This document shows positions 6,772 to 59,453 of a stretch of 64,000 nucleotides of DNA, piece by piece (within the stretch, counting starts at the first letter, position 1; every line of letters begins with the position of its first letter). The position numbers were made by a program, and so were the translations under genes. The notes beneath the pieces were generated by a model. That model worked only from the letters and a program-made list of their open reading frames with translations, searched no databases and was not told where the DNA came from. Source of the stretch: an uncultured Acidobacteriota bacterium (lineage in GTDB: Bacteria > Acidobacteriota > UBA6911); assembly GCA_964474425.1 (NCBI GenBank), contig CAYYTC010000022.1:1486-65485 (forward strand), read 5' to 3'.

Positions 6772-8616
6772 ATGAAAGATCTATATGTCAAAGAACGCGA
6801 CCGCTCGCGCATCCCTGAAAAATACAAGTGGGATTTGAGTGAGCTCTATCCCGACGACGATGCCTGGACGGAAGCCAGGCGGCGGTTTGCTGCCGACCTT
6901 GTCCGCATATCGTCCTTCCGGGGCAAGCTGTCCGAATCACCGGGCCGGCTCCTGAACTGCCTCGAACTGGCAGACTTTTTCGGCAAGGAGTGCGCAAGGC
7001 TTGCCAGCTACGCGAGCATGAAATCGGACCTGGATACACGTGACTCAAAATACACGGCCATGGATCAGGAAATGAGCCGCATAGGGTCGGACCTTTCCGC
7101 GTTGACTTCATTCATCGAGCCGGAAATCCTGAGAATCGGCCCGGAAAGGATCAACCTCTTCATCGGACAGGAGCCGCGGCTTGCTGTTTATCGCCACGTT
7201 TTCGACGACATCCTCCGCAAAAAAGATCACACGGGCACGGAAGCCGAAGAGAAGATCATTGCCGAAGCCAACCTGATGGCCGATTCTCCGGCCAGCATCC
7301 ATACAATTTTTTCCAATGCCGATTTCCCCTTCCCGGAGGTAATCCTCGAAGACGGCTCTGCGGTGCGCCTGGATCCGCCGGCCTTCAGCCTGCACAGGAG
7401 GTCCCCTGTCCGCGAAAACAGGAAGAATGTTTTCTCCTCTTTTATGGGCAGCCTGAACGGTTTTCGCCGGACTTTCGGCGCTCAACTTGCCGCGGAAGTC
7501 CGGAAGAACATGTTTTTCACCCGCGCCCGGTCCTACAAATCCTGCCTGGAACGAGCCCTGGATGCCAACAATATCCCGGTCGCGGTCTACCACAGCCTCA
7601 TCTCAGGGGTACACGCGCACCTGGACACCCTCCACCGGTACCTGCTTCTGCGCAGGAGGCTGCTGGGGCTCAAAGAGTTGCATTACTACGACCTCTACGC
7701 GCCGGTCGTCAAGGAACTCGATTTAAGCTTTACGTACGACGAAGCCGTGGAACACGTGATCTCCTCCCTGGTTCCTCTGGGTAAGGAATACCAGAGCGTC
7801 GCGAGAACGGCGCTGTCCAGCCGCTGGATCGACGTGTATCCGAACGCCGGGAAAAAGTCCGGCGCTTACATGAATGGCGCCGTCTATGATATCCACCCGT
7901 ATATGCTTCTGAACTACAACGGCAAATATGACGACGTAAGCACCATCGCCCATGAACTCGGGCATACCATGCACAGCCACCTGACCAACGGGACGCAGCC
8001 CTACGCGCTATCCCATTACTCGATTTTCGTGGCGGAGGTGGCATCGACATTCAACGAAGCTCTTTTGCTGAACCATATGCTGGCAACCGAAGCCCGGGAC
8101 GAGGTGCGGCTGTCGCTGCTGTGCAATTACCTGGACAATGCCCGGGCAACGGTCTTCCGGCAGGTACAGTTCGCGGAGTTTGAACTCGGGATGCACCACG
8201 CAGCCGAAGAAGGTTCGGCCCTGACCGGTGATTTTCTAAACTCCCTTTATAGTGAAATCGCGCGGGAGTATTACGGGCACGAAAAAGGCATCTGCATCGT
8301 GGACGACGAAATACAGGCCGAATGGGCCTATATTCCCCATTTCTTTTACAATTTCTACGTGTATCAGTACGCAACATCCTACACGGCTTCCGCCGCACTC
8401 TACGGGATGGTTCAGGCCGGAGGCGATGATGCGGTCCGCTCCTATCTCAGCCTTCTTTCCGCGGGCGGATCCGACTATCCGATCGAGCTTCTCAAAAAGG
8501 TCGGAGTGGACATGACCACACCGCATCCCCTTGAAGCAACGATAGTTCGGATGAACCAGGTCATGGATGAAATAGAAAAAATCGCGTTCCGCCCCGGCAG
8601 TGCCATTTTTGCTTGA
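6772..8616 (+). CDS. pepF: Oligoendopeptidase F (M3B family)
   Basis: 614 aa. HELGH (HEXXH) zinc motif. Overall PepF-like architecture. Confidence 0.85.
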   Translation: MKDLYVKERDRSRIPEKYKWDLSELYPDDDAWTEARRRFAADLVRISSFRGKLSESPGRLLNCLELADFFGKECARLASYASMKSDLDTRDSKYTAMDQEMSRIGSDLSALTSFIEPEILRIGPERINLFIGQEPRLAVYRHVFDDILRKKDHTGTEAEEKIIAEANLMADSPASIHTIFSNADFPFPEVILEDGSAVRLDPPAFSLHRRSPVRENRKNVFSSFMGSLNGFRRTFGAQLAAEVRKNMFFTRARSYKSCLERALDANNIPVAVYHSLISGVHAHLDTLHRYLLLRRRLLGLKELHYYDLYAPVVKELDLSFTYDEAVEHVISSLVPLGKEYQSVARTALSSRWIDVYPNAGKKSGAYMNGAVYDIHPYMLLNYNGKYDDVSTIAHELGHTMHSHLTNGTQPYALSHYSIFVAEVASTFNEALLLNHMLATEARDEVRLSLLCNYLDNARATVFRQVQFAEFELGMHHAAEEGSALTGDFLNSLYSEIAREYYGHEKGICIVDDEIQAEWAYIPHFFYNFYVYQYATSYTASAALYGMVQAGGDDAVRSYLSLLSAGGSDYPIELLKKVGVDMTTPHPLEATIVRMNQVMDEIEKIAFRPGSAIFA

Positions 8617-8656
8617 ATGCCGGCTACAATGTCCCGGCCGAACCTGCTAATATTGC

Positions 8657-8926
8657 GTGATGTTGAAATATGCCCGTCGGATTATCATACTGATTGTAGG
8701 AATGACCGTTTTGCTGATAGGCGTTGCCATGCTTGTCCTTCCGGGTCCCGCTATCGTTGTGATCCCGGTCGGGCTTGCGATCCTGGCCACCGAGTACGCC
8801 TGGGCCCGACACTGGCTTCGGGTGATTCGCGAGACTACGGAAAAGGGTGCTGAAAAACTGAAGCTGCGGAGCATCTTTTCGCGCAAAGCGGCCTCGAATC
8901 CTCAGGGCGCCGCCCCGGAGCGGTAA
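8657..8926 (+). CDS. Small two-TM membrane protein (PGPGW-type)
   Basis: LVLPGPAIVVIP motif. Two hydrophobic helices. Confidence 0.45.
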   Translation: MMLKYARRIIILIVGMTVLLIGVAMLVLPGPAIVVIPVGLAILATEYAWARHWLRVIRETTEKGAEKLKLRSIFSRKAASNPQGAAPER

Positions 8927-9207
8927 AAACTCCGGAACCAGGAATGTGTTCCCTTCCAATGTTACGCTGAATTTCGCTGACAGAAGCGCCGCCACACGCT
9001 GAAAAAACATATGGCATTGCACGGCCCGGCTCAGCGCTTCAATTTCAGCGACCGTCCTGAAGCCGATATCGATTTGGCTGTTTGCACCACTAGTTCGTGT
9101 AATTTGCGGCCGTTTTTTATAAAATCCAGGGGTAACCCGATCGGGCGGTCGTTGAAGGACGAGGGAAGAATTCCCGGCGTATTCGGTCCGGGATTTAGGC
9201 ACATCAA

Positions 9208-12200
9208 ATGGCAGACTCACCAAGGAAGGCAATTAGCAGGCGCTGGTTACGGCTGGCGGTGATCCTGCCGGCTGCGCTCCTCGCGATCCTGGCATCTGCC
9301 TTTTTCCTCATCCAGACCCAAGCCGCAAAAAGCGCCCTCTTCCGTCAGCTGCAAAAATACCTGCGCGAACATTCCGGGATCGAGCTGCAGGCATCCGGTT
9401 TCCGTGCGGACCTGATCCGAGGGGAGGCGAGCCTGGAGAATGTGACCCTCCGGCATGTTTCCGCGCCGGGGCTGCCTCCTTTATTCAAAGCAGCCCGCTT
9501 CTATGTGCGGGCGGATATTTCCCGGCTGATCCGGGGCTTCCGCGAAATCGAGGAACTGAGGGTGACGGCTCCCGAAGTTAATTATTTTACAGATCCGTAC
9601 GGCAAAACCAACCTGCCTCCGTCCAAATCCGGACCGGGATCCGATTACAATCTCTTTATCTTCCACGGCGAAGCAAACGATGGAGTTCTGAGGATCCGGG
9701 ACCTCCGCAGCGGGATTGATCTGCACCTTTCAAATTGTCAGGTATCCGCAGACGGGGACAGCGCCACACACGGCCACCGCTTCGCTTTTGCCATCGGGCA
9801 GGAATCTTCTCTCGGATATCAACAACACAAATTTCCCCTGCGCGGACTGACAATTCGGGCAGACCTGAAAAATACAGGCCTTCAGGTCCATTCCCTCGAA
9901 CTTGAGACGGATGGGATCCGGCTGTCGGCAGCCGGTCTATTGAGCAATTTGTCCAAACCGGTTATGGATCTGCAGATCGAGCCGGATTTGGATTTGAACA
10001 GAATCGGGAGCACTCTTGAACTGCCATCCGGGATTGAAGGCCATATCTCAGGAAACGTTTCCGTCAAGGGAACCCTCGAGGAACTTCAGATCGCGGCTCG
10101 GCTGAAAGGTTCTTCCGTCGGCGCAGGGGAGTATGGCCCTGCAAGTTTCAGCGGCACCGCGCTCGCCGAATGGCTCGCCGACTCCAAACGGTTGCGCATC
10201 CGGAACCTGGACCTTGATTCGGCCGGCGGGTCGATCAAGGGGAACTCGGAGTTGTTTTTTGCGCCCCAAGCGGGCGTCAACTCCATCGAGGCGAGCTTTC
10301 AAAACCTCGATCTTTTCCCACTGTGGAAGCTGCTGAAACCGCCCTTTGATCTGGCCAGCCGGGGCGCCGGACAGGCCGCATTTCGATGGAAGGGACCGTT
10401 TTCCGCCTCGAAAATATCAGGGAATGTCCACCTCAATCTCTCGGCGGCGCGCGCGGCTCCGGATCTGAACATCCTGCCCATTTCGGGGAAGATCGATGCG
10501 CAAATCCAATCGGGCCGCATCGAGGCAGGCTTGAATTCCATCGAGGTGCTCGAGTCTCAGGTAAGCGGCCGGATTTCCCTACGTTCTTTCAGGGAAATCG
10601 AGGGCGGCATCCGAGGGTACGCACCGAACACGAACGGCATGATGGCGCAGCTTTCCCGTTTCCTCGGCGGAAGCGGCAGTTTTTTGAGAGACCGCAGGAT
10701 AGAGGGTCCCGTCGAGTTCACCGCCCAAGCCAGCGGGAAACTAAAGCAGCCGAAGTTCATCATCTCCGCTGACGCCCCGGACCTGCAGATTGGGGGACTG
10801 AAAAGCACACGGGCAACTGCCGGAGCGACCATAGAAGGCTCCCACATCTCTTTCGACAGCATCCTCACCCTGCCCGGGGACGCGCTCTCTTCCGTCAAAG
10901 GAACGCTGGACCTTTCCGGAACCAAGCCTCTGCTGGACATGGAAGCGCGCGCCGACAGAATTCAGGCGGCCTCGATACTGTCCGTCCTTGGGAGCGAGGT
11001 GCCTTTGGAGGGCTATTTCGACGCAGGGCTGCATCTGAACGGGAATTTGGACAGCCTGACCGGTGCGGCTCAGGTTGCAGGCAGCGCATTGTTCCTATAC
11101 GGGGAACCGCTCGGGCGACTGAATGCAAACCTGGAGGTTTCCGGTACAAAATTACAGTCCACTCAAATCACGTTGCATAAGGATCCGCAAATCCCCGGGG
11201 TCGGCGTCCTCGAAGCAAACTTCGCCTACGACCTGGAGTCCGGCCAATTCGAGTTTCAGGCCGACGGGAAGGACATGGCCATCACTCAGCTCAAGCTTCC
11301 CGGCGGATACCCGGTGGAAGGAATTTTTTCGGTTGCTGCCTCGGGGACCGGAACGCTTGCGCAACCCTCGATGGATATCAGGCTGACTACCGGCGAGGCT
11401 CAAGTCCGACACATGCCTCTCGGGCCCCTATTCATCGAGGGTTCCCTGAGGGAGGGACAGCTTACGGTCGGCGCCTCCGCTCCACGTTACAATATCGACT
11501 CCACCGCTCAAATCGCGGTCCGTGTTCCTTATCCTTACAGCGGCGAAATAAGGCTTGGAAATTCCGACCTGTCGCTGCTTGGTTTGAGGGGAGCGAACGG
11601 GCAGCTCCTGTCGGGAACCCTAGGAGCTCTGATCACCGGCTCAGGGGAGCTGACCGACGCTTCAAATGCGCGCGTTTCCGCCCGAATCGAGGAGCTGGGC
11701 TTGCAGGCCGGAGCGCTGAACATCCGAACCAGGGGCATCATTACTGCGGAATACCGGGACGGTTCGATTGAAATCAGCCCTGGCGCAACCCTCGCCAGCG
11801 GGAATTCAACCCTTCAGATAGCCGGAAGGGTGCCGCTCAGGCAGACGGCCCCGGACGGCACACTGACTCTCAAGGGCGAGCTTGATTTAGCTCAGGCTGC
11901 CGGATTTGCTCCAACAACGAAGGGATTCAAAGTCGCCGGCATCATGAAACTCGAGCTTTCCCTGTCGGGAAATCCTCGAAACCTGAGCGGTGAGGGCCGC
12001 ATAGCGCTGGCCGGCGGCACCATGAATTTGCCCGGGATTTCAACGCCGCTGACCGACATGCGGCTCAGAGCAGACCTTAAAGAGGGAGCCCTCATTCTGC
12101 AGCAGGCTGAAGCCGCCTGGGGTGACGGAAAAATCGCTTTGACAGGCGAATATCCACTGGGTCTGCTGCCTCAGAATGTCCCTGTTCAGTTCATGCGCAA

Positions 12201-15200
12201 GCAAGGTCCTGCCAGCTTCACTTTGGATCTGACGGGCATCCGGCCCGAGTCAACCGGATTGCTTCCGCCGGGTGTCACGGGATTGGTATCCCTGCGCGCC
12301 GCCGTCAAGGCGGCAAGCCCGGACCTGCGCGCGCTCGACGCCAGGATCGACTTCGGAGAACTGAGCCTGAAGGTCAAGGGGATCCCTCTGAGCCAGGCAG
12401 CGCCGTCCGCAATTGTTGTCCGCGATGGGATAGCCTCCATTTCAAGTTTCTCGCTGAACGGGCCCGACACACGCATTGATGCAAGCGGGTCGGCAGGCAT
12501 TCTTCCGGACGGCCCGTTGAACATCCGGCTGTCCGGGAACGTGGATGCCGGGCTGCTTTCGCTGGTGAAGGACCTGAAAGCGGCCGGGAAACTTGAAGTC
12601 CAGGTTGTCACAGCCGGCACCTTGAAGTCCCCCACCTTCTCCGGGCAGGCCGGAATGGACGGCGGGAGATTGAGCCTCCGGGCTCCCCGCGTCGTGGCCG
12701 ACAGCCTGACTGTCCGCCTTGGCTTCACTCCGGACAAGATATCCATTCGTCAGTTTTCCGGCACCCTCAACGGCGGGACCGTGGACGCGAAGGGCACGAT
12801 TGGGTATCGCCACGGAGCATTGAACGCTTTCGACGTAAAAATAAATTTCCAGGATTTTTTCCTCGACTTTCCGGAAGGCCTGAAATCCGCTTCCAATGGA
12901 AATCTCACGATCACCTCCTCGGAAGAGTCAATCCTGGCCAGCGGAGATGTTCAGGTATTGGAAAGCTCCTACAGGGAATCTTTCGCAGTCGGCGGCCAGC
13001 TGATGAGCTACCTCAAGTCACAGCAAATCATCGAGGAAAGCGGCACAACCGACTCCATCCTGGACAGCCTGCGCCTCAACATCAATCTAAAAGCCGATAC
13101 GCCGCTGCTGGTTCAGAACAACATAGCCAAAGTGGAAGCGGACGCCAATCTCAAGCTGGTGGGCACCTTCCGCGAGCCCTCCCTGATCGGGAGAGCGGAT
13201 CTCTATGAGGGGGGCGAGATCATTCTGAATCAGCGCATATACTATATCAAGCGGGGCATCGTCACGCTGAACAACCAGATGCGGATCGAGCCCGAGCTCG
13301 ATGTGCAGGCCCAGACCACGGTGGGCGATTACAGCATCACCCTCCAATTGACCGGCGTGCCCGAAAGGCTGCTGACCACGTTGACATCCGAACCCTCGCT
13401 CTCGGAACCTGACATAATGTCGTTGCTTCTCACGGGCAAGACATCTTCGGATGTGGAGGGGCAGGGCAAGGAAATCCATATGGCCCAGACACAGGCCTTG
13501 TCGCTGCTTGCGGGACAGGCCGGTGAGGAACTCACGCGAGGCGCCCGGCAGGCGCTGCACCTCAGCACCCTCCGGATCGATCCGGGATTAATCGCGGCCG
13601 AATCGGATGCGGGAGCACGGTTAACCCTTGGAGAAGACATAACCAGGGATCTGAGCTTCATGTACTCCATGAACCTCGTCAATGGAGGCGACCAGATCTG
13701 GGCAGCCCAATATCAAATCGTGCCGAGGTTCACCACACAGACCACCCGGCAGGCGGACAACAGCTACCGGTTTGAATTCCGGCACGACCTGCATCTTGGG
13801 GGCGCAGCCGGATCCAAGCCTGTAAAAAAAGCCAGGAAATTCGTCATCGGCTCCATTGAATTTCAGGGCGGATCCCCATACTCCGAAAAGGACTTCCGGA
13901 ACCGGCTGAAAATCAAACCCGGCGACAAGTACGATTTCCAGAAAGTTCAGAATGGGCTGGACCGCCTGCAGGAGTTCATGGCCGATGAGAAGAGGCTGGA
14001 AGCGGATATCCGGCTTCACCGGGAAACGCGGCAGCAGACGATAGACCTGCAGCTGAACATCGATCCGGGACCCGTCGTGGAGTTTTTCTTTGAAGGCGTG
14101 TCCGTCTCTAAGGAAACACAGCAGAAGGTCGAGCAGGCCTGGCGCGATGGTGTTTTCAGCATAGAAAGGCTGGACGAAGCAATCCTAGCAATACGCAGAC
14201 CGCTTCTGCGGATCGGATTCCTGCAAGCCGAAGTGACCTACCGTCTGGAGGAGGAGCAAAGGATTCATGTGTTTTTCAACATAACGCCGGGACCTCGATT
14301 CACCGGCATCCAGCTCTTCTTCCCGGGCGCTTCGGAGATCAGCGCCGCAGAGTTGGACAAGACACTGGACCTGGCGGATTTGAAGCTGGAAATCCATGCC
14401 GATCCGCAAAGAGTTGTGGATTACGTGACAAAATACTACCGCGAGCGCGGCTACCTGCAAGCCCGCGTGGAAACGCCCCAGGCAATGCTGGATTCGGAGA
14501 CCGGAACGGGGAAGATCGAAATGCCGATCCAGGAAGGGCCCCTGTTCCTGATAGGCAATCTGGACTTCAAGGGGAACAGATCCTTTGACTACGATCAACT
14601 CTGGAGCGTGATCCCGACTTCAAGCGGCAGCAGCTACGATCCCAATACGCTGCGCGATGCGCTCCGCGCAATCGAGGGCCTCTATCACAAAAAAGGATAC
14701 AACGACGTAACAAGCACATTCCGTGTCGTCCAGGATTCGAAGGCAGCCCGGGCTCATCTCACATTCGAAATCAATGAGCACCGCCAGTCGGTCATCCGCG
14801 ACATCGTCGTCGAGGGGAACAGGGAAACGAGCGACGGCTTTATCCTGAAACAGCTGGGATTCCAGTCCGGGGAAGCCCTGGATTTCCTGAAGATCAACGA
14901 AACACGGAAGCGTCTCTATGATACGGGTGTTTACACGCTGGTGGACTTCCAGACTGAGGAGATTTCCCCATCCGCGCCCGATCCCGCGGTGAAGGATGTG
15001 CGCGTCCGCATACGGGTCGAGGAAATCAGGCCGTATCGATTGCAGTATGGATTTTTTTACGATACGGACCGCGGGGTAGGAGGCCTTTTTGAAGCGCAGC
15101 ATCGCAACCTGCTGGGCCAAGCTTCGAATCTCGGGCTCCGGCTCCGCCTGGACACGGACTTGAAGGAAGGCCGTATATACTTTCACCAGCCGTTTATCTC

Positions 15201-16074
15201 GAAAATTCATATCAAGACCGATGCCACGGCTTTCGCGCTCAGGGAAGTTCGGGAGGCCTTTTCAGCCCGGAGGGTCGGTTTTTCCCTGACGCGGGAGGAA
15301 AAATTTCCCAAGGAATATCTTTTCACCTACGGCTACCGGTACGACCACGTTCGATGGAACGGGCTTCCACCCGATCCGCAGTATTTTCAAGCCAGCGATC
15401 CCGTGGCCCGGGTTCTCGCAACACTGACACGGGATACGAGGGACAGCATCCTCGATGCAACGCGGGGCGAATTTTCGTCGCATAGCCTCGAGTTCGGACC
15501 CGAGTGGCTGGGATCGGAAACAGGTTTCATCCGCTATTACGGCCAGTATTTTAGGTATGTGCCGCTTGACAAGATGCTGAATATCCCCCTCAGAGACAAA
15601 AGGGGACAGCCGGTCGCTCCAAAACTGATCTACGCAGGCGGCCTTCGGCTCGGGCTGACATCGGCGTTCAATCACAAAACTCTCATTTCCCCGGAGCGAT
15701 TTTTCGCCGGAGGCGGCACGACCATGAGAGGGTTCGAGCAGGACGGCCTGGGGCCGCAGGAAAACGCGGGAACCCCTGACAATCCCATTTGGAGGCCGAC
15801 CGGCGGCGAGGCCATGTTCCTGTTCAACAACGAGCTGCGATTCCCGATCTTCGGCATCCTGCACGGAGTCGGCTTTTTGGACATAGGAAATGTCTATCCG
15901 CGGGTTACCGATTTCGATTTCAGCATGCGCAAAACGGCGGGCATCGGCCTGCGCCTCAAGATCAAGTTCATCCCTCTGCGCTTCGATTACGGGTGGAAGC
16001 TTGACCGCCGCACGGGACAGGAGCCCAGGGAAAACCGGGGGGCCTTTTTCTTCAGCATCGGCCAGGCCTTTTAG
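9208..16074 (+). CDS. Single-polypeptide fusion of a TamB-like translocation/assembly protein (signal-anchor, long beta-rich region, C-terminal DUF490) to a TamA/BamA-like Omp85 protein (POTRA repeats plus 16-strand beta-barrel)
   Basis: Continuous 2288-codon ORF. N-terminal signal anchor RRWLRLAVILPAALLAILASAFFLI. Repetitive TamB-like beta-rich middle. DUF490-like C-terminal region (...EPDIMSLLLTGK...DLSFMYSMNL...IWAAQYQIVPRF...YRFEFRHDL). Then a 15-aa linker (HLGGAAGSKPVKKARK) with no stop or signal peptide. Then POTRA-like units (FVIGSIEFQGG...; IGNLDFKGNRSF...; IRDIVVEGNRETSDGFIL...). Then an Omp85 barrel ending in the classic beta-signal ...GIGLRLKIKFIPLRFDYGWKL...FFFSIGQAF. Confidence 0.8.
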   Translation: MADSPRKAISRRWLRLAVILPAALLAILASAFFLIQTQAAKSALFRQLQKYLREHSGIELQASGFRADLIRGEASLENVTLRHVSAPGLPPLFKAARFYVRADISRLIRGFREIEELRVTAPEVNYFTDPYGKTNLPPSKSGPGSDYNLFIFHGEANDGVLRIRDLRSGIDLHLSNCQVSADGDSATHGHRFAFAIGQESSLGYQQHKFPLRGLTIRADLKNTGLQVHSLELETDGIRLSAAGLLSNLSKPVMDLQIEPDLDLNRIGSTLELPSGIEGHISGNVSVKGTLEELQIAARLKGSSVGAGEYGPASFSGTALAEWLADSKRLRIRNLDLDSAGGSIKGNSELFFAPQAGVNSIEASFQNLDLFPLWKLLKPPFDLASRGAGQAAFRWKGPFSASKISGNVHLNLSAARAAPDLNILPISGKIDAQIQSGRIEAGLNSIEVLESQVSGRISLRSFREIEGGIRGYAPNTNGMMAQLSRFLGGSGSFLRDRRIEGPVEFTAQASGKLKQPKFIISADAPDLQIGGLKSTRATAGATIEGSHISFDSILTLPGDALSSVKGTLDLSGTKPLLDMEARADRIQAASILSVLGSEVPLEGYFDAGLHLNGNLDSLTGAAQVAGSALFLYGEPLGRLNANLEVSGTKLQSTQITLHKDPQIPGVGVLEANFAYDLESGQFEFQADGKDMAITQLKLPGGYPVEGIFSVAASGTGTLAQPSMDIRLTTGEAQVRHMPLGPLFIEGSLREGQLTVGASAPRYNIDSTAQIAVRVPYPYSGEIRLGNSDLSLLGLRGANGQLLSGTLGALITGSGELTDASNARVSARIEELGLQAGALNIRTRGIITAEYRDGSIEISPGATLASGNSTLQIAGRVPLRQTAPDGTLTLKGELDLAQAAGFAPTTKGFKVAGIMKLELSLSGNPRNLSGEGRIALAGGTMNLPGISTPLTDMRLRADLKEGALILQQAEAAWGDGKIALTGEYPLGLLPQNVPVQFMRKQGPASFTLDLTGIRPESTGLLPPGVTGLVSLRAAVKAASPDLRALDARIDFGELSLKVKGIPLSQAAPSAIVVRDGIASISSFSLNGPDTRIDASGSAGILPDGPLNIRLSGNVDAGLLSLVKDLKAAGKLEVQVVTAGTLKSPTFSGQAGMDGGRLSLRAPRVVADSLTVRLGFTPDKISIRQFSGTLNGGTVDAKGTIGYRHGALNAFDVKINFQDFFLDFPEGLKSASNGNLTITSSEESILASGDVQVLESSYRESFAVGGQLMSYLKSQQIIEESGTTDSILDSLRLNINLKADTPLLVQNNIAKVEADANLKLVGTFREPSLIGRADLYEGGEIILNQRIYYIKRGIVTLNNQMRIEPELDVQAQTTVGDYSITLQLTGVPERLLTTLTSEPSLSEPDIMSLLLTGKTSSDVEGQGKEIHMAQTQALSLLAGQAGEELTRGARQALHLSTLRIDPGLIAAESDAGARLTLGEDITRDLSFMYSMNLVNGGDQIWAAQYQIVPRFTTQTTRQADNSYRFEFRHDLHLGGAAGSKPVKKARKFVIGSIEFQGGSPYSEKDFRNRLKIKPGDKYDFQKVQNGLDRLQEFMADEKRLEADIRLHRETRQQTIDLQLNIDPGPVVEFFFEGVSVSKETQQKVEQAWRDGVFSIERLDEAILAIRRPLLRIGFLQAEVTYRLEEEQRIHVFFNITPGPRFTGIQLFFPGASEISAAELDKTLDLADLKLEIHADPQRVVDYVTKYYRERGYLQARVETPQAMLDSETGTGKIEMPIQEGPLFLIGNLDFKGNRSFDYDQLWSVIPTSSGSSYDPNTLRDALRAIEGLYHKKGYNDVTSTFRVVQDSKAARAHLTFEINEHRQSVIRDIVVEGNRETSDGFILKQLGFQSGEALDFLKINETRKRLYDTGVYTLVDFQTEEISPSAPDPAVKDVRVRIRVEEIRPYRLQYGFFYDTDRGVGGLFEAQHRNLLGQASNLGLRLRLDTDLKEGRIYFHQPFISKIHIKTDATAFALREVREAFSARRVGFSLTREEKFPKEYLFTYGYRYDHVRWNGLPPDPQYFQASDPVARVLATLTRDTRDSILDATRGEFSSHSLEFGPEWLGSETGFIRYYGQYFRYVPLDKMLNIPLRDKRGQPVAPKLIYAGGLRLGLTSAFNHKTLISPERFFAGGGTTMRGFEQDGLGPQENAGTPDNPIWRPTGGEAMFLFNNELRFPIFGILHGVGFLDIGNVYPRVTDFDFSMRKTAGIGLRLKIKFIPLRFDYGWKLDRRTGQEPRENRGAFFFSIGQAF

Positions 16075-16272: not shown

Positions 16273-19161
16273 CTACTTTTGATATTCCTCGACCGGAGGA
16301 CAGACACACACCGGGTTGCGGTCCCCGTAAACGTTGTCGATCCGCCCCACCGGCGGCCAGAATTTATGCTCGCGCGTCCACGGCGCAGGGAAGGCCGCCT
16401 CCTGACGAGTATACGGATGATGCCACGCCTCGACCAACAGGGACGCGGCACTGTGCGGCGCATTTTTGAGCAGATTATCCTGCGGATCCGCTTTGCCCTG
16501 TTCTATCGCGGAAATTTCGCCGCGTATCGCGATCATCGCTTCGCAGAAACGGTCGAGCTCCTCCCTGGACTCGCTCTCGGTCGGCTCGACCATCATGGTG
16601 CCCGGGACGGGGAAAGAGACTGTCGGAGCGTGAAAACCATAATCCATTAACCGCTTTGCCACATCATCGACCTCGACGCCCGCGCTTTTTTTCAAAGCCC
16701 GCAAATCCAGGATGCACTCATGGGCGACAAATCCGCGCGCGCCCTTGTACAGGACCGGGTAGTAGGGATCGAGTCTCTTTGCCATGTAATTGGCGTTGAG
16801 AATTGCGTAGCAGGTGGCCTCTTTAAGGCCTTCGGCGCCCATCAAGTCGATGTAGGCCCAGGAAATGGGCAGAATGCCGGCGCTGCCCCAGGGTGCGGAA
16901 GAAACGGCTCCTACTCCGTCCTTGCCGCCGGTCGCGATGACAGAATGCGAGGGCAGATAGTCCGCCAGATGGGACGCGACCGCTATGGGGCCGATGCCGG
17001 GGCCTCCGCCGCCGTGCGGGATGCTGAAGGTTTTATGAAGGTTCAAATGGCACACGTCCGCGCCGATTTCCGCGGGGCGGCACACACCCACCTGTGCATT
17101 CATGTTGGCGCCGTCCATGTAGACCTGGCCGCCGGCGGCATGGACGACCGCGCAGATCTCCCGGATGGCCTCTTCGAAAACGCCGTGCGTGGAAGGATAC
17201 GTGACCATGAGCGCGGCCAGCGTTTTCTGGTGCTTCGCGGCTTTATCCTTGAGATCCGCCAGATCGATGTTGCCGTTTTCGTCGCAGGCCACGACCACAA
17301 CCTTCAATCCGGCCATTACGGCGCTGGCAGGATTTGTTCCGTGGGCCGATTGTGGGATAAGACAGATGTCCCGATTCCCTTCTCCCCGCTTTTCGTGATA
17401 TCTGCGGATCACCAGGAGCCCGGAATATTCGCCCTGCGAGCCGGCATTCGGCTGGAGGGAAACAGCCGGCAACCCGGTTATCTCGCCGAGCCAGTCCTGC
17501 AACTGGTTAAAGATCTGCTGATACCCTCTCGCCTGGTCCGGCGGCGCGAATGGATGGATTCTGCCGAATTCCGGCCAGGTGATCGGAACCATCTCCGCAG
17601 TCGCATTGAGCTTCATCGTGCAGGAGCCAAGGGGAATCATCGATGTATTGAGCGCAAGGTCCCGGCTTTCCAGGCGGTGCACGTAGCGCAGGAATTCCGT
17701 TTCCGAGCGATGGCGGTGAAACACCGGGTGCGTGAGATAGGAACTGCTGCGCGCAAGCGGTTCCGGGTATTCCGGCGCAGCCTGATTCATCAGTTCATCC
17801 AGCTCGAGGGGCGCCGGACCGGGCGGCGCAAAAACCGAAAACAGATCCGTAAGATCCCCGTCTGATGCTGTCTCGTTCAGGCTGATGCCGATTGCCGTTT
17901 CATTCAAGCGGCGCAGGTTCATGCCCCGCTGTTGAGCCAGCTCCAGCAGCCGCTCCGTATCCCGCGGACCGGTTTCCACCCTCAAAGTGTCGAAGAAAGG
18001 ATCCGGCCCGATTTTATAGCCAAGTCTTTTCAATCCCCGGCCAAGAACTTCTGCAAGAAAATGGATGCGCCGGGCGATCCCCTTCAGCCCATCCGGACCG
18101 TGATATACGGCATACATGCTTGCCATGATTGCCAGCAAAACCTGTGCGGTGCAGATGTTGCTCGTGGCTTTATCGCGGCGGATGTGCTGCTCCCGGGTCT
18201 GCAGGGCCAGGCGGACGGCAGGGTTTCCCGATACGTCTTTGGATAAGCCGACGATGCGTCCCGGCATCTGCCTTTTGTAGCTATCGCGTGTCGCAAAAAA
18301 TGCGGCATGCGGCCCGCCGTACCCCAGGGGGACGCCGAAACGCTGCGAATTCCCGACCGCTATGTCCGCCCCGAATTCCCCGGGCGGGCGAAGCAGCGTC
18401 AGCGCCAGCAGGTCGGCGGCAACCGTGACCAGAGCGCCTGCCTGATGCGCGCGGTCCACAAATCCGGAGTAGTCCAAAATGGCGCCGTCGCTTGCCGGAT
18501 ATTGCAGCAGTGCGCCGAAAACGGACGGGGTAAAATCAAAGGTCGTATGATCCCCGACTATGACCTGAAATCCCCGAGCGCGGGCGCGCGTCCGGACTAC
18601 CTCCATCGTCTGGGGATGACACGCCTCCGAAACAAAAAATGCGTCGCCCTCGGTTCTGGAAAGGCTGTAGCTCATGCTCATCGCCTCTGCCGCTGCGGTT
18701 CCCTCGTCCAGAAGCGACGCGTTGGCGATATCGAGAGCCGTCAGGTCGGCTATCATCGTCTGAAAATTCAAAAGAGCTTCGAGCCGTCCCTGCGCAATCT
18801 CCGCCTGATACGGAGTGTATTGCGTATACCATCCCGGATTTTCGAGGATGTTCCGCTGAATAACAGGCGGGGTGATACAGTCGTGATACCCCATGCCGAT
18901 AAATGAACGAAGGATCCGGTTTTGCAAAGCCACCTTTCGCAGCCGCTCCAGCATCGAATATTCACTGTGAGGGCCGTCGATATGAAGGGGTTCCGGCAGG
19001 CGGATGGACGGGGGAACCGTTTTTTCAATCAAGGCTTCCATCCCGGTCAGCCCCAGGAAATCCAGCATCTCCCGGGCATCATCCGGCCTGGGCCCTATAT
19101 GCCGGCGGACAAACAAATCGGAAGCTTCCTGAGCATTCCCAGCAATATTTTTTGGCGGCAT
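16273..19161 (-). CDS. gcvP: Glycine dehydrogenase (decarboxylating), single-chain P-protein of the glycine cleavage system
   Basis: ~960 aa with full-length GcvP-like sequence (PLP-lysine region ...[15 protein letters not shown]...). Start chosen at the ATG 19161 with a GGGGA RBS. Confidence 0.9.
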
Positions 19162-19339
19162 CGTCATCCCCAATGATAAAGGATTGTCTTCTTAAATCCT
19201 GCGACGTGAATAATTAGCACTTTCCTATGCCGCAAGCAAACCCTGAATGTTTCGATGCCGCTCAGGCACGCTATTCTTGACCGCAGAGGCGCGGAGTTCG
19301 CAGAGATAGCAGAGATAAAGGTTGCACGGGTCAGGGCCG

Positions 19340-23626: not shown

Positions 23627-24457
23627 TCATCCGTTTTTGCCATCTGCCGGACTCCTCTCCAAATGCGCGCCGTGAATCCAGCGGAAGACCGTATCCCGCC
23701 TTTCCTCGTCCGGCTTCCTCCTGCCGCGCAGATCATCCAGGCTGCTTTCCATGTTCTGATAGACATCCTGCATGAGCTTGTGTTTTTCCCCCTTCACATA
23801 CGATGAAAGATCGATAGGACTGCCAATCTTGATCCGTATGATGACGCCCGGGTTTACCTGCAGCGTTTTGGGCATGATCACACGGTAGCTGCCCTCCAGC
23901 GTAATCGGGATCAGGGGGACGCCTGTGCGCAGCGCAAGGGAAAAGGCGCCGCTGTGGAATTTTCCCAGTCCTCCCGTCCGGCTGCGGGTTCCTTCCGGGA
24001 AGGCGATGGCATTCACCCCGCCCTGGATTGCCCGCGCGGCCTCAATGATGCTCCGGGCGGCTTCACGGGGATTTTCGCGGTCGATGGCGATGTAGCCGGA
24101 CCGCTTCATATGCCAGCCCATGAAAGGCACCCGGAAAAGGGGTTTTTTGGCAATCCAACGGAACTGGATGGGCAGGAGGGCCGACAGCGAGAGGATGTCG
24201 TGCAGCCCGCTGTGGTTGGCGACGAAAATCTGGGGACGGCCCCGGTCAATGTGCTCCATGCCCTCGATATCGACACGGGCGCGGCTCAGCCACAGATTAT
24301 CCCGGGACCACCGGCGCATGCAGTAGTGCTGAAGTCTGCCGCTGCCCGACACCAGGCTGCCCAGTATTGAAACGGTGGCCCAGAATGCAGTGCTCAGGCC
24401 GCATCCCGTCCAGCACCAGATGGTAAAAAGCCGGGCTTTGAGTCGTTCCATTCCCAA
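23627..24457 (-). CDS. plsC: 1-acyl-sn-glycerol-3-phosphate acyltransferase (LPLAT family)
   Basis: NHSGLHD (HX4D) and FPEGTRS motifs. Confidence 0.75.
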   Translation of the reverse strand: MGMERLKARLFTIWCWTGCGLSTAFWATVSILGSLVSGSGRLQHYCMRRWSRDNLWLSRARVDIEGMEHIDRGRPQIFVANHSGLHDILSLSALLPIQFRWIAKKPLFRVPFMGWHMKRSGYIAIDRENPREAARSIIEAARAIQGGVNAIAFPEGTRSRTGGLGKFHSGAFSLALRTGVPLIPITLEGSYRVIMPKTLQVNPGVIIRIKIGSPIDLSSYVKGEKHKLMQDVYQNMESSLDDLRGRRKPDEERRDTVFRWIHGAHLERSPADGKNG

Positions 24458-28576: not shown

Positions 28577-28715
28577 GCGACTGTTTTAGCAAAACAGGGC
28601 CACCGATTGCACGCCTAATCGGAGGAACCGGCTGCGCTTATCCGGCGATGGTTGAAATGGGCGGTGGGATTCCCTATGATGTGCCTTTTGAAAAACATCG
28701 GGAGTATCAACAGCC

Positions 28716-30335
28716 ATGCCATTGCCAGCCAAGGCGGAGCCAATCCAGACCCATGAAAAGCCCAACAAGCGCGCGACTGCCGAGAGTATGGCCGCGCGCC
28801 AGCGGGAGATCTCGATTTCCGAATTTTTCAGCAAAAACCGCCACCTTCTCGGATTCGATAATCCTCAGAAAGCTCTTTTGACGGCTGTCAAGGAAGCGGT
28901 GGACAACTCCCTGGACGCCTGCGAAGAAGCGGGAATCCTTCCGGTGCTCAAGGTGGATATCCAGCAGCTGGCCGAAGAACGGTTTCGGATAGCCGTGGAG
29001 GACAACGGCCCCGGCATCGTGAAAGCCCAGATACCCAAGATCTTCGGGAAGCTCCTGTATGGATCGAAATTCCACACGCTGAAGCAGGCAAGAGGGCAGC
29101 AGGGCATAGGAATTTCGGCGGCAGGCATGTACGGCCTCCTGACCACGGGGAAATCGATCGCGGTGACTTCGCGCACAGCACCGGACAAGCCGGCTCATTA
29201 CTACGAAATCCAGATAGACACGCGTAAGAATGCGCCGCAGGTCATCATGGACAAGGTGGTCGAATGGGAGCCGCCGCACGGGACAAGGGTGGGAATCGAG
29301 CTGATCGGGACCTATAAAAAGGGCCGTCATTCCGTGGACGACTACATCCGGCAGACAGCCATCGCCAATCCTCACTGCGAAATTTTCTATACCGTCCCGG
29401 AGTCGGAACAGCCTCTGCATCTCCAGAGAGGCTCCGACATGCTCCCGCCCGAGCCCCGGGAGATCAAGCCCCACCCCTATGGCGTCGAACTCGGCGTGCT
29501 CATACGAATGATGAAAGAAACGCCGGCCCGGCAGCTCAGCGCAGCGCTGCAGAAGGATTTCTCGCGCGTAAGCAGCCGCGTGGCGATGGAGATCTGCAAA
29601 GCGGCCGCTTTGAGTCCCGGGGCGAACCCGCGCACCATTGTGGTGAACGAGGCGGAGAGGCTTTATAAGGCGATCAACAGCGTGAAAATCATGAGTCCCG
29701 CCACAAATTGCCTGTCGCCCATCGGGGAGCAACAGATACTGTCGGGGCTGAAAAAAGAAATCCAGGCATCGTTTTACGCCGCCATCACCCGGGCGCCTGC
29801 CGTATACCGGGGCAATCCGTTCCAGGTGGAGGTCGGTCTGGCCTATGGAGGCAGCCTGCCCGCCGACGAACTGGTGGACCTCCTCCGATTCGCGAACCGC
29901 GTGCCGCTTCAATACCAGCAGTCGGGATGCGCCATAACCAAGGCCGTGCTCGGGATAGACTGGCGCAGTTACGGACTTTCCCAATCCAAAGGCGCCCTGC
30001 CCACGGGACCGGTGGTTTTGTTCGTGCATATCGCATCCGCATGGGTGCCTTTCACATCGGAGAGCAAAGAAGCCGTTGCGGCGTATCCGGAAATCATGCG
30101 CGAACTGCGGCGCGCCCTGCAGGATTGCGGGCGAAGGCTGGCGACCCACATCCGGGCGCATCGCCGCGAAGTGGACGAAGAGAAGAAAAAATCGTACATC
30201 GAAAAATATATCCCGCATATCGGGATTGCCCTGCGCGAAATCCTGGGGCTCTCCGAAAAGGCGGAAAAAGAGCTGGTTGCAAGACTCAAACACGTGCTCG
30301 AACGCAGCCGGTCCAGGGAGCCGATCGAGGATTGA
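28716..30335 (+). CDS. top6B: DNA topoisomerase VI subunit B (GHKL ATPase plus transducer)
   Basis: Bergerat-fold motifs (EAVDNSLDA; VEDNGPGI; GQQGIGIS). ~540 aa. Immediately upstream of the A subunit. Confidence 0.85.
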
Positions 30336-30392
30336 AGACCGAGAGAAACCGGCGGGACAACCGCCGGGGACTTCGTTTGGGGAGAATGACTG

Positions 30393-31520
30393 ATGCCGAA
30401 AAAAAAGAGCGCCGGCCCTGAAACAAAGCAGGCTGCAGGAAAGAACGTCCTGAGCGCAATACGGGCGTCTGCGGAAGATATTCACGGCAAGATCATGGCG
30501 CGGAAAAAGCCCACCATGAAGCTTCCAGTGCGCTCGCTGTCCAATGTACGCTACCAGCCGCAACGCGGCTTTTTTGAAATGACGGGCCAGAAGAAAGAGC
30601 GCACCCTCACGGTCAATACCGTGAAAACCTTCGCGCAAACTCTTCGCATGGTGGCGCTGTCCAAAGAGCTTGTCGAGAACGACGATATCGCCACGAAAAG
30701 GGAAGCGTACTACGTATCCAAAAACTGGGAGGATGCCCGTTTCAACGAACAGCCGGAATCGGACACGGTCATGGATGACGTCGAAGCCTACTTCGGCATC
30801 AACCGCGAGCAGTTGGGTTTCATCCCCGAAGAAAAAGGGGGCGACGTGGCAGGACGGTTGTTCGTGGTCGACCACGACCGCGATACAGGGAAGGTGCTCC
30901 GCATCGACTGCACCAAATTCGGATCGGGCGCATACAGCATCCCTATTTCGGTCGAGCAGCTTCAGTTCGAGACCAACGCCAGCTTCATTCTCGTGATTGA
31001 AACAGCCGGGATGTTCCAAAGGCTGGTGAAGCACAACTACTGGAAGAAGGCCAACTGCATTCTCATCAGCATGGGAGGCGTGCCGACCAGGGCTTGCCGC
31101 CGCTTCATCCGGCGGCTGGCCGATTTCAAAAAGATCCCGGTCTATGTTTTTGTTGACGGAGACCCTTACGGCATCACCAACATATACCGGACGCTGAAAG
31201 TGGGGTCTGGGAACGCCGCGCACCTGAACGAATTCTTCTGCGTGCCGCAGGCCAGATTTTTGGGAATTACGCCTCGGGATATCGTCGACTACAAGCTGCC
31301 GACGCATCCGCTGAAGGACGTGGATATAAAGAGAGCCCGGGACGCCATGAAAAACGATCCTTTCATAAAACACTACCGGGAGTGGGTCCATGCGATCGAA
31401 CACCTGCTCGAAATGGGGGTTCGCGCCGAGCAGCAGGCTTTGGCAAAACACGGGCTGAACTACGTCATCGACACCTATCTGCCTGAAAAGCTCGCTCATC
31501 CGGAGCGCTTTCTGCCGTAA
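30393..31520 (+). CDS. top6A: DNA topoisomerase VI subunit A (Spo11-like; winged-helix with catalytic Tyr, plus Toprim domain)
   Basis: KREAYYVS (catalytic tyrosine context). Toprim acidic motifs ILVIETAGMF and FVDGDPYG. Confidence 0.85.
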   Translation: MPKKKSAGPETKQAAGKNVLSAIRASAEDIHGKIMARKKPTMKLPVRSLSNVRYQPQRGFFEMTGQKKERTLTVNTVKTFAQTLRMVALSKELVENDDIATKREAYYVSKNWEDARFNEQPESDTVMDDVEAYFGINREQLGFIPEEKGGDVAGRLFVVDHDRDTGKVLRIDCTKFGSGAYSIPISVEQLQFETNASFILVIETAGMFQRLVKHNYWKKANCILISMGGVPTRACRRFIRRLADFKKIPVYVFVDGDPYGITNIYRTLKVGSGNAAHLNEFFCVPQARFLGITPRDIVDYKLPTHPLKDVDIKRARDAMKNDPFIKHYREWVHAIEHLLEMGVRAEQQALAKHGLNYVIDTYLPEKLAHPERFLP

Positions 31521-31599
31521 AAATCCCAAAGATCTCTTCATATGGCCGGAAACCGGAAAGCCTGAAACGCCTGAGTTCGCGCTATGCGCTGGCATGGGT

Positions 31600-55469: not shown

Positions 55470-55710
55470 TCGCGAAACTCAGAATTTAGGCCCGGAGGGT
55501 GGCAGGCACTCGACCCGGCCGTCAGGCCGGGCTTATGGGTGAATAGGAAATGAACGCCAAAGGCGCGGCACAAATTGTTCGGGTCATTGGTTTTAGTGTC
55601 GCCCCTTCGGGGCTTTCTATTTTCCTAATCCTACCCCCGGGCTCGCGCCCAGGGCCATTTTCTGTCGGCCCTCCGGGCCTGGATGTCGCATTTCGCGACA
55701 GAACCTAATT
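55470..55710. mobile_element. Degenerate second copy of the MITE-like element (same TIR family as 6407..6704)
   Basis: Left end ctgtcgcgaaact (55477-) and right end atttcgcgacagaacctaattg (55693-). Palindrome-rich interior (cccggccgtcaggccggg; gcccc ttcg ggggc). Confidence 0.5.
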
Positions 55711-57298: not shown

Positions 57299-58165
57299 CT
57301 AGGGAATTTCAGCCTTCAGGGGAGATCGCAGCTTGAATTCAAGGATGGTCTCCGCCGGAATCCTCAGAACCTCTCCTTTTGTCAAAACCTGGACTCCTGT
57401 ACCGACCGCTGCGCCCGATGCCGCTCCAACGGCCGCTCCTGTACCGCCTCCGGCAATAGCCCCGATAATCGCTCCCAGGGCAGCGGTGCCGCCCACGGTC
57501 GCCGCGGTCCGCTTCCCCCGGGATGATCCCACCTCCTGGTAGTCGGACGTTCGCAACATATACGACCGGCCGCCTGCAACCAGGTCTGTAAGTTCAAGAA
57601 TCAATTGAGGTTGCCCGGATATTTTCCCCGACTCCCTGGCATAGGCTATCTTACCCTTAACGGTAGTGCCGCGGGGGAAAACTGTCCTCTCCTCTGCAAC
57701 CAGTGCCTCATCCAGGGATGCATCAAAAATATCGCCGACTCTATTACGTTCCGTATCAATTTCGGCCGAAGTTCTTATTACCAGGATTGTTCCCTCAGGG
57801 AAAGTCGCCTCGGAGCCCGATATGAAGGCCCGCGGCGCCTCGCGCTCAGCGGCCGGGAGTTGCTTCTGGGATTCGGCAGCAGCCGGTTCCGTCTGAACAG
57901 GAATATCTGGAGCAGGCGCGGGCTGGATGGAAGCTGAACCGCCGGGCTCCGAATCCTTGAAAATAATGCGGTCAATTTCGGAAATGCCGAAGCTTTCTAT
58001 CCTGCCCAGAATCCTAAAATCAACGGTCACTGAATCCCCGCGCACGAACTTGCCCGAGTATGTGGTGCCATCTTTGAGTATGATTTGGTCCGCCAGGGCG
58101 GCTGCCGCTGAGAAGCCGACAAGCATGCATGTTAAAAACAAACATATCTTATATTTAGACTTCAT
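57299..58165 (-). CDS. Secreted hypothetical protein with a C-terminal glycine-zipper segment
   Basis: Signal peptide. Pro/Ala-rich linker. C-terminal [31 protein letters not shown]. Confidence 0.45.
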
Positions 58166-58271
58166 TGCCGTTCTCCCTTCATCGGACGGATGCACACCCA
58201 AAAACGGATCCGCCGTTCCAAATGACAATGAATAAAGTTAGCGCCGATAGGGAAAAAATTCAAACTCCGAA

Positions 58272-58763
58272 TCAACGGCCACTATCTTCTTCGGCTTTTG
58301 AGGGAGGGTAGCCGAGAAATCCGTAGCGAAGGATCTTGACTTTTACCATCCTTCTGCCGAATTCCCTGCACATGTCGTAGTTTGGTATGAAAATGTCGAT
58401 GATTTTGCCTTTGATCAGCTCACCCGTATCCAGCGCCTGATAGATTCCACCCATGAGCGGCGAATCCACATAGATTATAGAACCCAGCGGTATGACCTTC
58501 GGATCGGAGGCGACGCGGCCGGGAGCTGCGGCCGCACCCGATCTGGTAATTCCCGTAACGCAATATGCCGTCGCCTGGAATTCCTCCTGACCTCCGGAGG
58601 CAATCGATGATTTCGATATATCATTGTAATAAAATGGTTTATCAGTAATCTTGTTGCATTCGCGATGAGCGAAATGGATGATTCCTGCGAAGCCGGCAAT
58701 GATAAGTGCGGTCCTCAGAAACGAAATTCGCTTCCGCAAAATTACCTTTTTTATGTCTAACAC
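58272..58763 (-). CDS. 3D-domain (MltA-like) protein, membrane anchored
   Basis: ATAYCVTGITRSG...DPKVIPLGS...DTGELIKGKIIDIF is the 3D-domain signature. Confidence 0.7.
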   Translation of the reverse strand: MLDIKKVILRKRISFLRTALIIAGFAGIIHFAHRECNKITDKPFYYNDISKSSIASGGQEEFQATAYCVTGITRSGAAAAPGRVASDPKVIPLGSIIYVDSPLMGGIYQALDTGELIKGKIIDIFIPNYDMCREFGRRMVKVKILRYGFLGYPPSKAEEDSGR

Positions 58764-59090
58764 AGATCCTCCTCACGCAAAACGGTACTTCCCCATTTCG
58801 GGCAGAAGATTAACGACTAATTTCAAGTAAGGCTAAAGAGGTGGGGAAAAAGAGACGTCTGCGCCAACAGCACACAGGGGATCGGGCATAAAAACGTCTC
58901 TCGGGTGTCGCTCGGCATGGAAAAAGGCTAGCAATTAGGAACCACCCCGGTCAATAGCTTTTTTTCAGGCAGGGAAGGGCTCAAAATGGGCCCTAATGAC
59001 CGGAATCTTTCATCGGATTACAGCAAGCCTTGCCGTACGGGGGAAGTATTCAATACGCTTCTATGGTATCCTCTAATGGAGCGCCATTTT

Positions 59091-59453
59091 ATGCATGAAT
59101 TGGGCATCGCGCAAAATATACTTGAGATCGTCCGGCAGGCCGTGCCGGACGAGCAAAAAGCTGCGGTCCGGAAGATCCGTATAAGAGTGGGGCAGCTTTC
59201 CGGAATTGTCCCCGATTCGCTCGATTTCTGTTTCAGCGTCATGCTGAATGAATCGCGGATGCCGAAGGCCAGGCTTGCCATTGAAGAGGTGCCGACGATT
59301 TCCCGGTGCAGGGATTGCGCGCACCGGTTCCAAATCGAAGATATGGCGTTTCTATGCCCGGCATGCAAAAGCACGAATCTCGAACTCGTTTCCGGCAGAG
59401 AACTGGAGGTTGTGGAAATCGAGCTCGCGGACGACCGCGACGAGGCTATATGA
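59091..59453 (+). CDS. hypA: Hydrogenase nickel insertion metallochaperone HypA
   Basis: MHELGIAQNILEIV N-terminus and the C-terminal CxxC...CxxC zinc site. Confidence 0.85.
   Translation: MHELGIAQNILEIVRQAVPDEQKAAVRKIRIRVGQLSGIVPDSLDFCFSVMLNESRMPKARLAIEEVPTISRCRDCAHRFQIEDMAFLCPACKSTNLELVSGRELEVVEIELADDRDEAI

Follow-up and report, generated by a model that had tools for sequence, protein, structure and literature searches.

A conserved natural gene fusion of TamB and a BamA-like Omp85 protein in Acidobacteriota

The module for translocation and assembly (TAM) in Escherichia coli and other proteobacteria is made of two subunits in 1:1 stoichiometry, the inner membrane-anchored TamB and its Omp85 partner TamA, which bears three POTRA (polypeptide transport-associated) domains and a 16-strand barrel; the operon order is tamA-tamB (PDB 9XDC and 23SP; PMC12800296, PMC13119328). 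The C-terminal DUF490 domain of E. coli TamB consists of two helices and six β-strands (PMC12800296), and its last strand (residues 1251-1259) resembles a β-signal and pairs with β1 of TamA to give a hybrid barrel (PMC12800296, PMC13119328). In Borrelia burgdorferi, the partner of TamB is a five-POTRA BamA-type Omp85 protein, and the genes (BB0794 and BB0795) are arranged with TamB before BamA. The two are separate proteins whose interaction may be transient; BamA is made with a signal peptide of its own, and the cell has no other essential BamA (PMC5582053, PMC11361582, PMC13382580). A model of this complex of TAM with the β-barrel assembly machinery (BAM) places the TamB strands in BamA, where they complete the barrel, and brings POTRA1 near POTRA5 (PMC13382580). 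Here we describe a gene at positions 9208..16074 of a 64,000-nucleotide window (the whole stretch of DNA that was analysed) from an uncultured Acidobacteriota bacterium of the UBA6911 lineage (assembly GCA_964474425.1, contig CAYYTC010000022.1), in which a TamB-like protein and a complete POTRA-bearing Omp85 protein are encoded as one polypeptide.

The fusion resembles the E. coli TAM in its presumed inner membrane-anchored TamB part with DUF490 helices and six strands, in its POTRA-bearing Omp85 part with a 16-strand barrel, in the 1:1 ratio of the two, and in a β-signal-like strand that ends TamB, located where the E. coli protein pairs with β1 of its Omp85 partner. It differs in being a single chain with TamB first, in having five POTRA domains and no separate signal peptide on the Omp85 part, in lacking a free TamB C-terminus, and in scoring far below the TamA and TamB equivalog cutoffs, unlike the proteobacterial proteins. 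As in Borrelia, TamB precedes a five-POTRA BamA-type Omp85, and the geometry modeled there is the one that the short tether of the fusion, 14 amino acids (aa), would require; in contrast to Borrelia, the link is covalent and the Omp85 part is probably a paralog rather than the sole BamA. As one chain that would sit in both membranes, the fusion has its nearest analogue in MlaD of Veillonella parvula, an inner membrane-anchored protein with a C-terminal outer membrane β-barrel that forms a two-membrane lipid-trafficking bridge. However, MlaD comes from an unrelated family and assembles as an MCE hexamer around a helical tunnel; its barrel is no insertase of the Omp85 type, and it has no POTRA domains and no hybrid barrel (PMC10665443).

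The gene lies on the forward strand, starts with ATG and extends for 2288 codons plus a stop as one uninterrupted open reading frame (ORF) of ~6.9 kb. Basic residues precede an N-terminal hydrophobic segment, WLRLAVILPAALLAILASAFFLI (9244..9312, about residues 13-35), and a Kyte-Doolittle scan of the protein, in which this segment covered residues 12-40, detected no hydrophobic segment beyond it. We presume, by analogy with TamB of E. coli and Borrelia (PMC5582053), that this segment is an uncleaved Sec signal anchor in the inner membrane. Nearly all family members with an intact called N-terminus likewise had a single hydrophobic segment, usually followed by a conserved HTPP..R motif. The next region (9316..12753, residues ~37-1182) is long and β-rich and is predicted to span the periplasm as an AsmA/TamB-like groove; Pfam gave a sub-threshold DUF748 match at residues 8-179 of the protein, and TamB_N, YhdP and AsmA matches on family members. 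The TamB/DUF490 domain (12754..13797, residues 1183-1530) was matched by PF04357 over residues 1183-1524 (E 1.3e-37; 130 bits, cutoff 22.4). When the DUF490 region alone was compared with the PDB by phmmer, as a single sequence, no match was returned; family profiles were required, and with these E. coli TamB chains were matched (9xdc_B, E 7e-8; 23sp_B, E 4e-7).

The domain ends in six amphipathic β-strands (13567..13797, residues 1454-1530), defined by the secondary structure of an AlphaFold2 (AF2) model and by a hydrophobic/polar alternation that is found family-wide, as in membrane-embedded strands. The last of them, YRFEFRHDLHL (residues 1520-1530), is β-signal-like. TamB has no free C-terminus after this strand: the chain runs on through a 14-aa linker, GGAAGSKPVKKARK (13798..13839, residues 1531-1544), directly into FVIGSIEFQGG... 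and POTRA1. Neither a hydrophobic segment nor a start codon was found at the junction, so the Omp85 part has no signal peptide of its own. POTRA domains (13840..14988, residues ~1545-1927) were recognized by Pfam, AF2 and Foldseek, with PF07244 scoring four stretches (E 5.8e-40) and AF2 giving five units, and the same three methods identified an Omp85 β-barrel, of 16 strands in AF2 (14989..16071, residues ~1928-2288; PF01103 at residues 1967-2288, E 2.8e-38). The barrel contains the loop-6 RGF motif (residues 2174-2176, nucleotides 15727-15735), of which R and G are invariant in the family alignment, and closes with the β-signal ...FFFSIGQAF, whose terminal F is also invariant. Three strong domain matches, in the right order within a 6.9-kb ORF, are far beyond chance. 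The ORF, its translation and Pfam thus agree with the original prediction, made from the DNA letters, that a TamB-like protein and an Omp85 protein form one polypeptide with no intervening stop, start or signal peptide; its reading of the N-terminal part as TamB-like was borne out by PF04357 and by the family-profile match to E. coli TamB, and its reading of the C-terminal part as a full Omp85 barrel by Pfam, AF2 and Foldseek.

A whole-protein search retrieved about 45 proteins of 1900-2410 aa in which TamB, POTRA and Omp85 domains occur together, with identities to the fusion of 80-22%. Where the sources name them, the metagenome-assembled genomes (MAGs) of origin are called Bryobacteraceae, Vicinamibacterales, Vicinamibacteria, Thermoanaerobaculia and Candidatus Aminicenantes; the proteins themselves carry generic database names ('TamB domain-containing protein', 'YaeT' or a label that combines BamA and TamB). 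Species-representative genomes were scanned with a junction-spanning alignment of 6 sequences, since a first alignment of 19 sequences was too diverse for this purpose, and the 41 loci that matched across the junction are thereby biased towards the Bryobacterales-like part of the family. For all but one (40/41), the name given is Acidobacteriota or a lineage within it; the remaining genome is titled only 'bacterium'. About 30 of the 41 contain a complete single ORF of 2100-2520 aa and most others are cut by contig ends; the best species-representative match to the window fusion was only about 60% identical. When 1.84 billion cluster representatives were searched exhaustively with HMMER, each of the 150 top matches covered the entire junction profile in one stretch at E <= 1e-111, and most of these representatives are 2000-2370 aa long. 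At least 150 sequence clusters, and several acidobacterial classes, are thereby shown to share a conserved architecture, junction position and linker length. The fusion family is large and old, not a one-off, and the gene is a genuine, evolutionarily conserved gene fusion. Related genomes, which the original prediction had proposed to search, contain the fused architecture repeatedly, and split TamB-linked pairs occur in Acidobacteriota-like genomes.

Three further observations were made on the family. A cluster of 14 cysteine-containing members (P0059/P0060; 1908 aa) has TamB, POTRA and Omp85 domains and a different-looking junction, is ~22% identical to the window protein, and may be an independent or very old fusion branch. 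One Bryobacteraceae MAG, SBS.BIN.82, carries two different fusion loci (L019 and L031), which are either paralogs or the product of bin contamination. At L019, a small generic 'Omp85 family' gene (7888-8928, minus strand; NF047779, 88 bits) is convergent with the fusion. A look for a second Omp85 or TamB gave nothing more than this neighbor at L019, and among the stand-alone BamA matches none lay on a contig of the same size as one bearing the fusion.

We analyzed the anatomy of the junction in 59 aligned full-length members. DUF490 ends in a conserved strand with the consensus SYRFEFRHDLRF, followed by G(G) and then by the linker. Most members have a linker of 14-16 aa (range 8-24); Ser, Arg, Pro and Thr are abundant in it, and its sequence is unconserved apart from the leading G(G). 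Three proteins of Thermoanaerobaculia type (P0036, P0037 and P0040) have ~190 residues at the junction in place of the short linker, comprising a Pro-rich stretch and apparently two extra POTRA-like domains. Their total of ~seven POTRAs recalls the seven-POTRA second BamA reported for Acidobacteria by Heinz et al. (PMC4494059).

The closest free relatives of the fused Omp85 are found in two loci, L045 and L046, where TamB and Omp85 are encoded as split pairs. At L046 (4034-10817 of a 2.88 Mb contig), a TamB of 1330 aa is followed by an Omp85 of 938 aa with a 26-nucleotide overlap, the same order as in the fusion; the order at L045 is Omp85, a 283-aa protein, TamB. In contrast to the fusion, TamB is terminated by a stop codon in both pairs, and the Omp85, which is also longer, with more POTRA-like domains, begins with a signal peptide. 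The split TamB proteins stop at a homologous β-signal strand: their C-termini, '...VRFHRSF' or '...FRFRKIFR' before the stop ('...GVDVRFHRSF' in L046 and '...FGLDFRFRKIFR' in L045), align with YRFEFRHDLHL of the fusion, and counting residues in the family-profile alignment puts the E. coli TamB C-terminus at the fusion point. Because the split TamBs end at the junction strand and the split Omp85s carry signal peptides, a short spacer has taken precisely the place of the stop codon of TamB and the signal peptide of Omp85, and L046 plausibly resembles the pre-fusion state. The low identity of the split pairs to the fusion (24-27% for the Omp85 half) indicates that the fusion family is a distinct, old lineage. 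The split pairs also bear on gene order, which the original prediction had described as inverted relative to tamA-tamB. The order TamB then Omp85 was confirmed, but it is not unique, as it occurs unfused in spirochaetes (PMC4494059) and at L046.

Structure prediction of the C-terminal part was carried out with AF2 on residues 1092-2288, using a family alignment of 38 sequences, and gave a model with a mean predicted local distance difference test (pLDDT) score of 77. The model contains continuous β-strands forming a groove (residues 1092-1396), low-confidence helices at model residues 309-359 and then six strands at model residues 363-439 (protein 1454-1530), a helices-plus-six-strands layout that matches DUF490 of E. 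coli TamB. The linker is disordered (pLDDT <50) and is followed by five β-α-α-β-β POTRA units and the 16-strand barrel with the loop-6 RGF motif. Foldseek aligned ~820 columns of the model to full-length five-POTRA BamA (E 7e-42); TamA was also matched, with a TM-score of 0.71 normalised to the target.

We consider it likely that the fusion forms a conserved single-chain TAM-like bridge, docked in cis, in which the Omp85 part plays a TamA-like role alongside a separate housekeeping BamA. In such a bridge, the N-terminal helix would direct the chain to Sec and remain in the inner membrane, while the remaining chain of about 2250 residues would thread into the periplasm and cross it as a lipid-binding groove. 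The six terminal TamB strands would enter the lateral gate of the barrel of their own chain, the β-signal strand 1520-1530 would pair with barrel β1, as in the E. coli TamAB hybrid barrel, and the five POTRAs would form a closed ring under the barrel, encircling the point where the TamB groove ends. Homology to the E. coli hybrid barrel and to the Borrelia model is the reason for proposing this mechanism; by that analogy, the terminal TamB strands probably dock into the same-chain barrel, and we infer that the chain is anchored in both membranes. If the β-signal strand terminates on the periplasmic side, next to where β1 begins, then a short linker would hold POTRA1 near POTRA5 in a closed POTRA ring. 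A stretch of ~14-16 residues, roughly 50 Å fully extended as estimated from the residue count, has to bridge the distance from the end of that strand to the POTRA1 N-terminus, which supports the closed ring, and a linker of conserved length and free sequence is what a geometric constraint of this kind predicts.

Several points weigh against this reading. Mean-field direct coupling analysis of 208 sequences (effective number, Meff, about 171) recovered the control hairpins (β15-β16, z = 6.6) and also β16-β1 covariation, but it gave no β-signal-to-β1 signal above noise; the first TamB strand against β1 was borderline, and the TamB-strand signals lay near the noise ceiling of z ~3. The predicted template modeling score (pTM) of the AF2 model was only 0.55. 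Every member of the fusion family is known from MAGs or metagenomes, and a search for a cultured host by way of a 'Candidatus Solibacter sp.' member returned only MAG and metagenome proteins. The accessory TAM role is drawn from relatedness and from general knowledge of two BamA copies in Acidobacteria (PMC4494059), and there is a small chance that the chain is cut at the linker after translocation, as discussed below.

The identity of the Omp85 half was assessed with NCBIfam models. The best match was BamA TIGR03303, with 260 bits for the whole protein and 266 for the Omp85 half, below the cutoff of 297 bits. TamA NF047950, a three-POTRA family with a cutoff of 625 bits, gave 57-65 bits; proteobacterial TamB NF047952 gave 30 bits against a cutoff of 825, and the TamL equivalog score was also far below its cutoff. 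With five POTRAs and 260-266 bits for BamA versus 57-65 for TamA, the fused half reads as BamA-like and not as a TamA ortholog, which refines the earlier description of it as "TamA/BamA-like". The nearest stand-alone relatives are only 24-27% identical; P0111 and P0118, the most similar free Omp85s among the contexts examined, are both TamB-linked, and the split Omp85 of L046 likewise scored below the BamA cutoff. Neither skp nor lpxD was found near the fusion in the neighborhoods of the window and its relatives. Because its free relatives are TamB-linked, its score falls below the BamA cutoff and the skp/lpxD context is absent, the fused Omp85 most likely has a TamA-like accessory role beside a separate housekeeping BamA.

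Alternatively, the fused Omp85 could be the sole essential BamA, making the protein a covalent BAM-TAM hybrid that inserts outer membrane proteins through a BamA tethered to the inner membrane. The five-POTRA architecture and the BamA model as best NCBIfam match are compatible with this possibility, as is the pairing of TamB with the sole BamA in Borrelia and other lineages (PMC4494059, PMC5582053, PMC13382580), and no second Omp85 or TamB is encoded in the 64 kb window. However, it is unlikely, given that the fused half scores below the equivalog cutoff and that its nearest free relatives, at only about 25% identity, are TamB-linked Omp85s of paralog type. In addition, Acidobacteria were reported by Heinz et al. 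to possess a canonical BamA and a second copy in a BamA-TamB operon (PMC4494059). Bulk outer membrane protein flux would also be hard to reconcile with a gate that is filled in cis and with 1:1 tethering to the inner membrane, and an insertase would already have to be in place for the first barrel to be inserted.

A related possibility is that one chain in place of two subunits makes the TamB-Omp85 hybrid barrel constitutive and never released throughout a bacterial lineage, in the extreme with the fusion as the only BamA-type insertase of these Acidobacteriota. We regard this as quite unlikely; were the extreme version true, all outer membrane biogenesis, of protein and lipid, would proceed via a machine tied to the inner membrane.

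It is also conceivable that the fusion is a polyprotein, exported via the N-terminal anchor and then cut in the linker by a periplasmic protease to yield a two-subunit complex of TamB and Omp85. Cleavage would restore an E. coli-like free TamB C-terminus, and the linker, disordered in the prediction, abundant in Ser, Arg, Pro and Thr and preceded by a conserved G(G), should be accessible to proteases. In contrast, the linker has no conserved cleavage motif beyond G(G), and no protease gene is conserved adjoining the fusion across the family. Moreover, it is the length and not the sequence of the linker that is conserved, suggesting a spacer under geometric constraint. Cleavage is therefore, in our judgment, quite unlikely, and a continuous chain docked in cis is preferred.

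The weakest explanation, that a frameshift or chimeric join merged separate tamB and bamA/tamA genes, is effectively refuted, since dozens of species and independent assemblies contain this architecture with an identical junction position, which makes the error allowed for in the original prediction very unlikely. A homopolymer run is a classic indel site, and there is an A7 run inside the linker (13824-13830, codons V-K-K-A). In addition, some long-read assemblies of relatives (L014, L043 and L044) have broken frames. However, the breaks in L014 and L043 occur at many sites, those in L044 also affect neighboring genes (GcvP and a permease), and none is specific to the junction. On the same L044 contig lies P0100 (719 aa, 65% identity, no TamB domain), which was considered as a natural split and rejected, as the contig is frameshift-ridden. 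In the window, the other two frames across 13500-14100 contain many stops, and in neither does a start codon precede a signal peptide; the junction has no nearby hydrophobic segment in any family member. Orthologs with 78-80% identity keep the frame with different linker DNA and protein sequences, about 30 independent species genomes contain the complete single ORF, and the junction is spanned in 150/150 top clusters. Finally, the identical 2288-aa protein was recovered from an independent Logan assembly of SRA run SRR8925802.

No description of a natural TamB-Omp85 fusion was found in the full-text literature, with subscription-only papers outside the scope of the search, and none appears in papers on TAM evolution and structure or in reviews (PMC4494059, PMC4104836, PMC11014939, PMC12045153, PMC12800296, PMC13119328, PMC13382580, PMC5582053). 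The fusion joins two partners that are already known and hence is not a new kind of system. Its interest lies in the engagement of TamB with its Omp85 partner, a matter of active debate; work in Borrelia raises the question of whether substrates can enter the BamA gate only once TamB has left it (PMC13382580). A natural fusion kept for so long implies that a free TamB C-terminus is not needed, and that TamB can be permanently committed to one five-POTRA Omp85, and it thereby constitutes a natural experiment on the geometry and permanence of TamB-Omp85 docking. It also provides a 'Rosetta-stone' confirmation of the TamB-BamA-type partnership beyond Proteobacteria and spirochaetes, and a single-chain construct could ease cryo-electron microscopy of 1:1 complexes. 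To our knowledge, few single polypeptides embedded in both membranes have been recognized, and the fusion would be a further example.

Directly upstream of the fusion lies a gene for a 71-aa PGPGW membrane protein (8711..8926, plus strand; Pfam PGPGW, E 5e-15), which is present upstream in only about 10 of the 41 loci, a close subclade. Peptidase M3 (6772-8616) and GcvP (16273-19173, minus strand) are also encoded near the fusion, and the locus is syntenic with that of a 78% identical ortholog on a 1.36 Mb contig. PGPGW, peptidase M3 and GcvP were rejected as functional partners, since this synteny is confined to the close subclade (~10 loci). A mechanically called ORF of 202 aa (8624-9232, minus strand), which runs across the PGPGW gene and into the beginning of the fusion gene, is probably not a gene. 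A PlsC-type acyltransferase, of a phospholipid synthesis family, is encoded ~8 kb downstream of the fusion and is not adjacent to it (23627-24457, minus strand); it is found in the same neighborhood in two relatives, L002 and L044. Elsewhere in the window, the region 58000-60000 has a GC content of 0.50, versus about 0.57 elsewhere, and encodes a 3D-domain protein together with the hydrogenase maturation genes hypA and, in part, hypF (its start); it has no tRNA or any feature with a bearing on the fusion. A 962-aa ORF (28707-31595, minus strand) has no Pfam match at E <= 0.001. In keeping with an origin from Acidobacteriota, the only Rfam match in the window at the gathering threshold is an Acido-Lenti-1 RNA at 55635-55680 on the plus strand (41.6 bits against 37).

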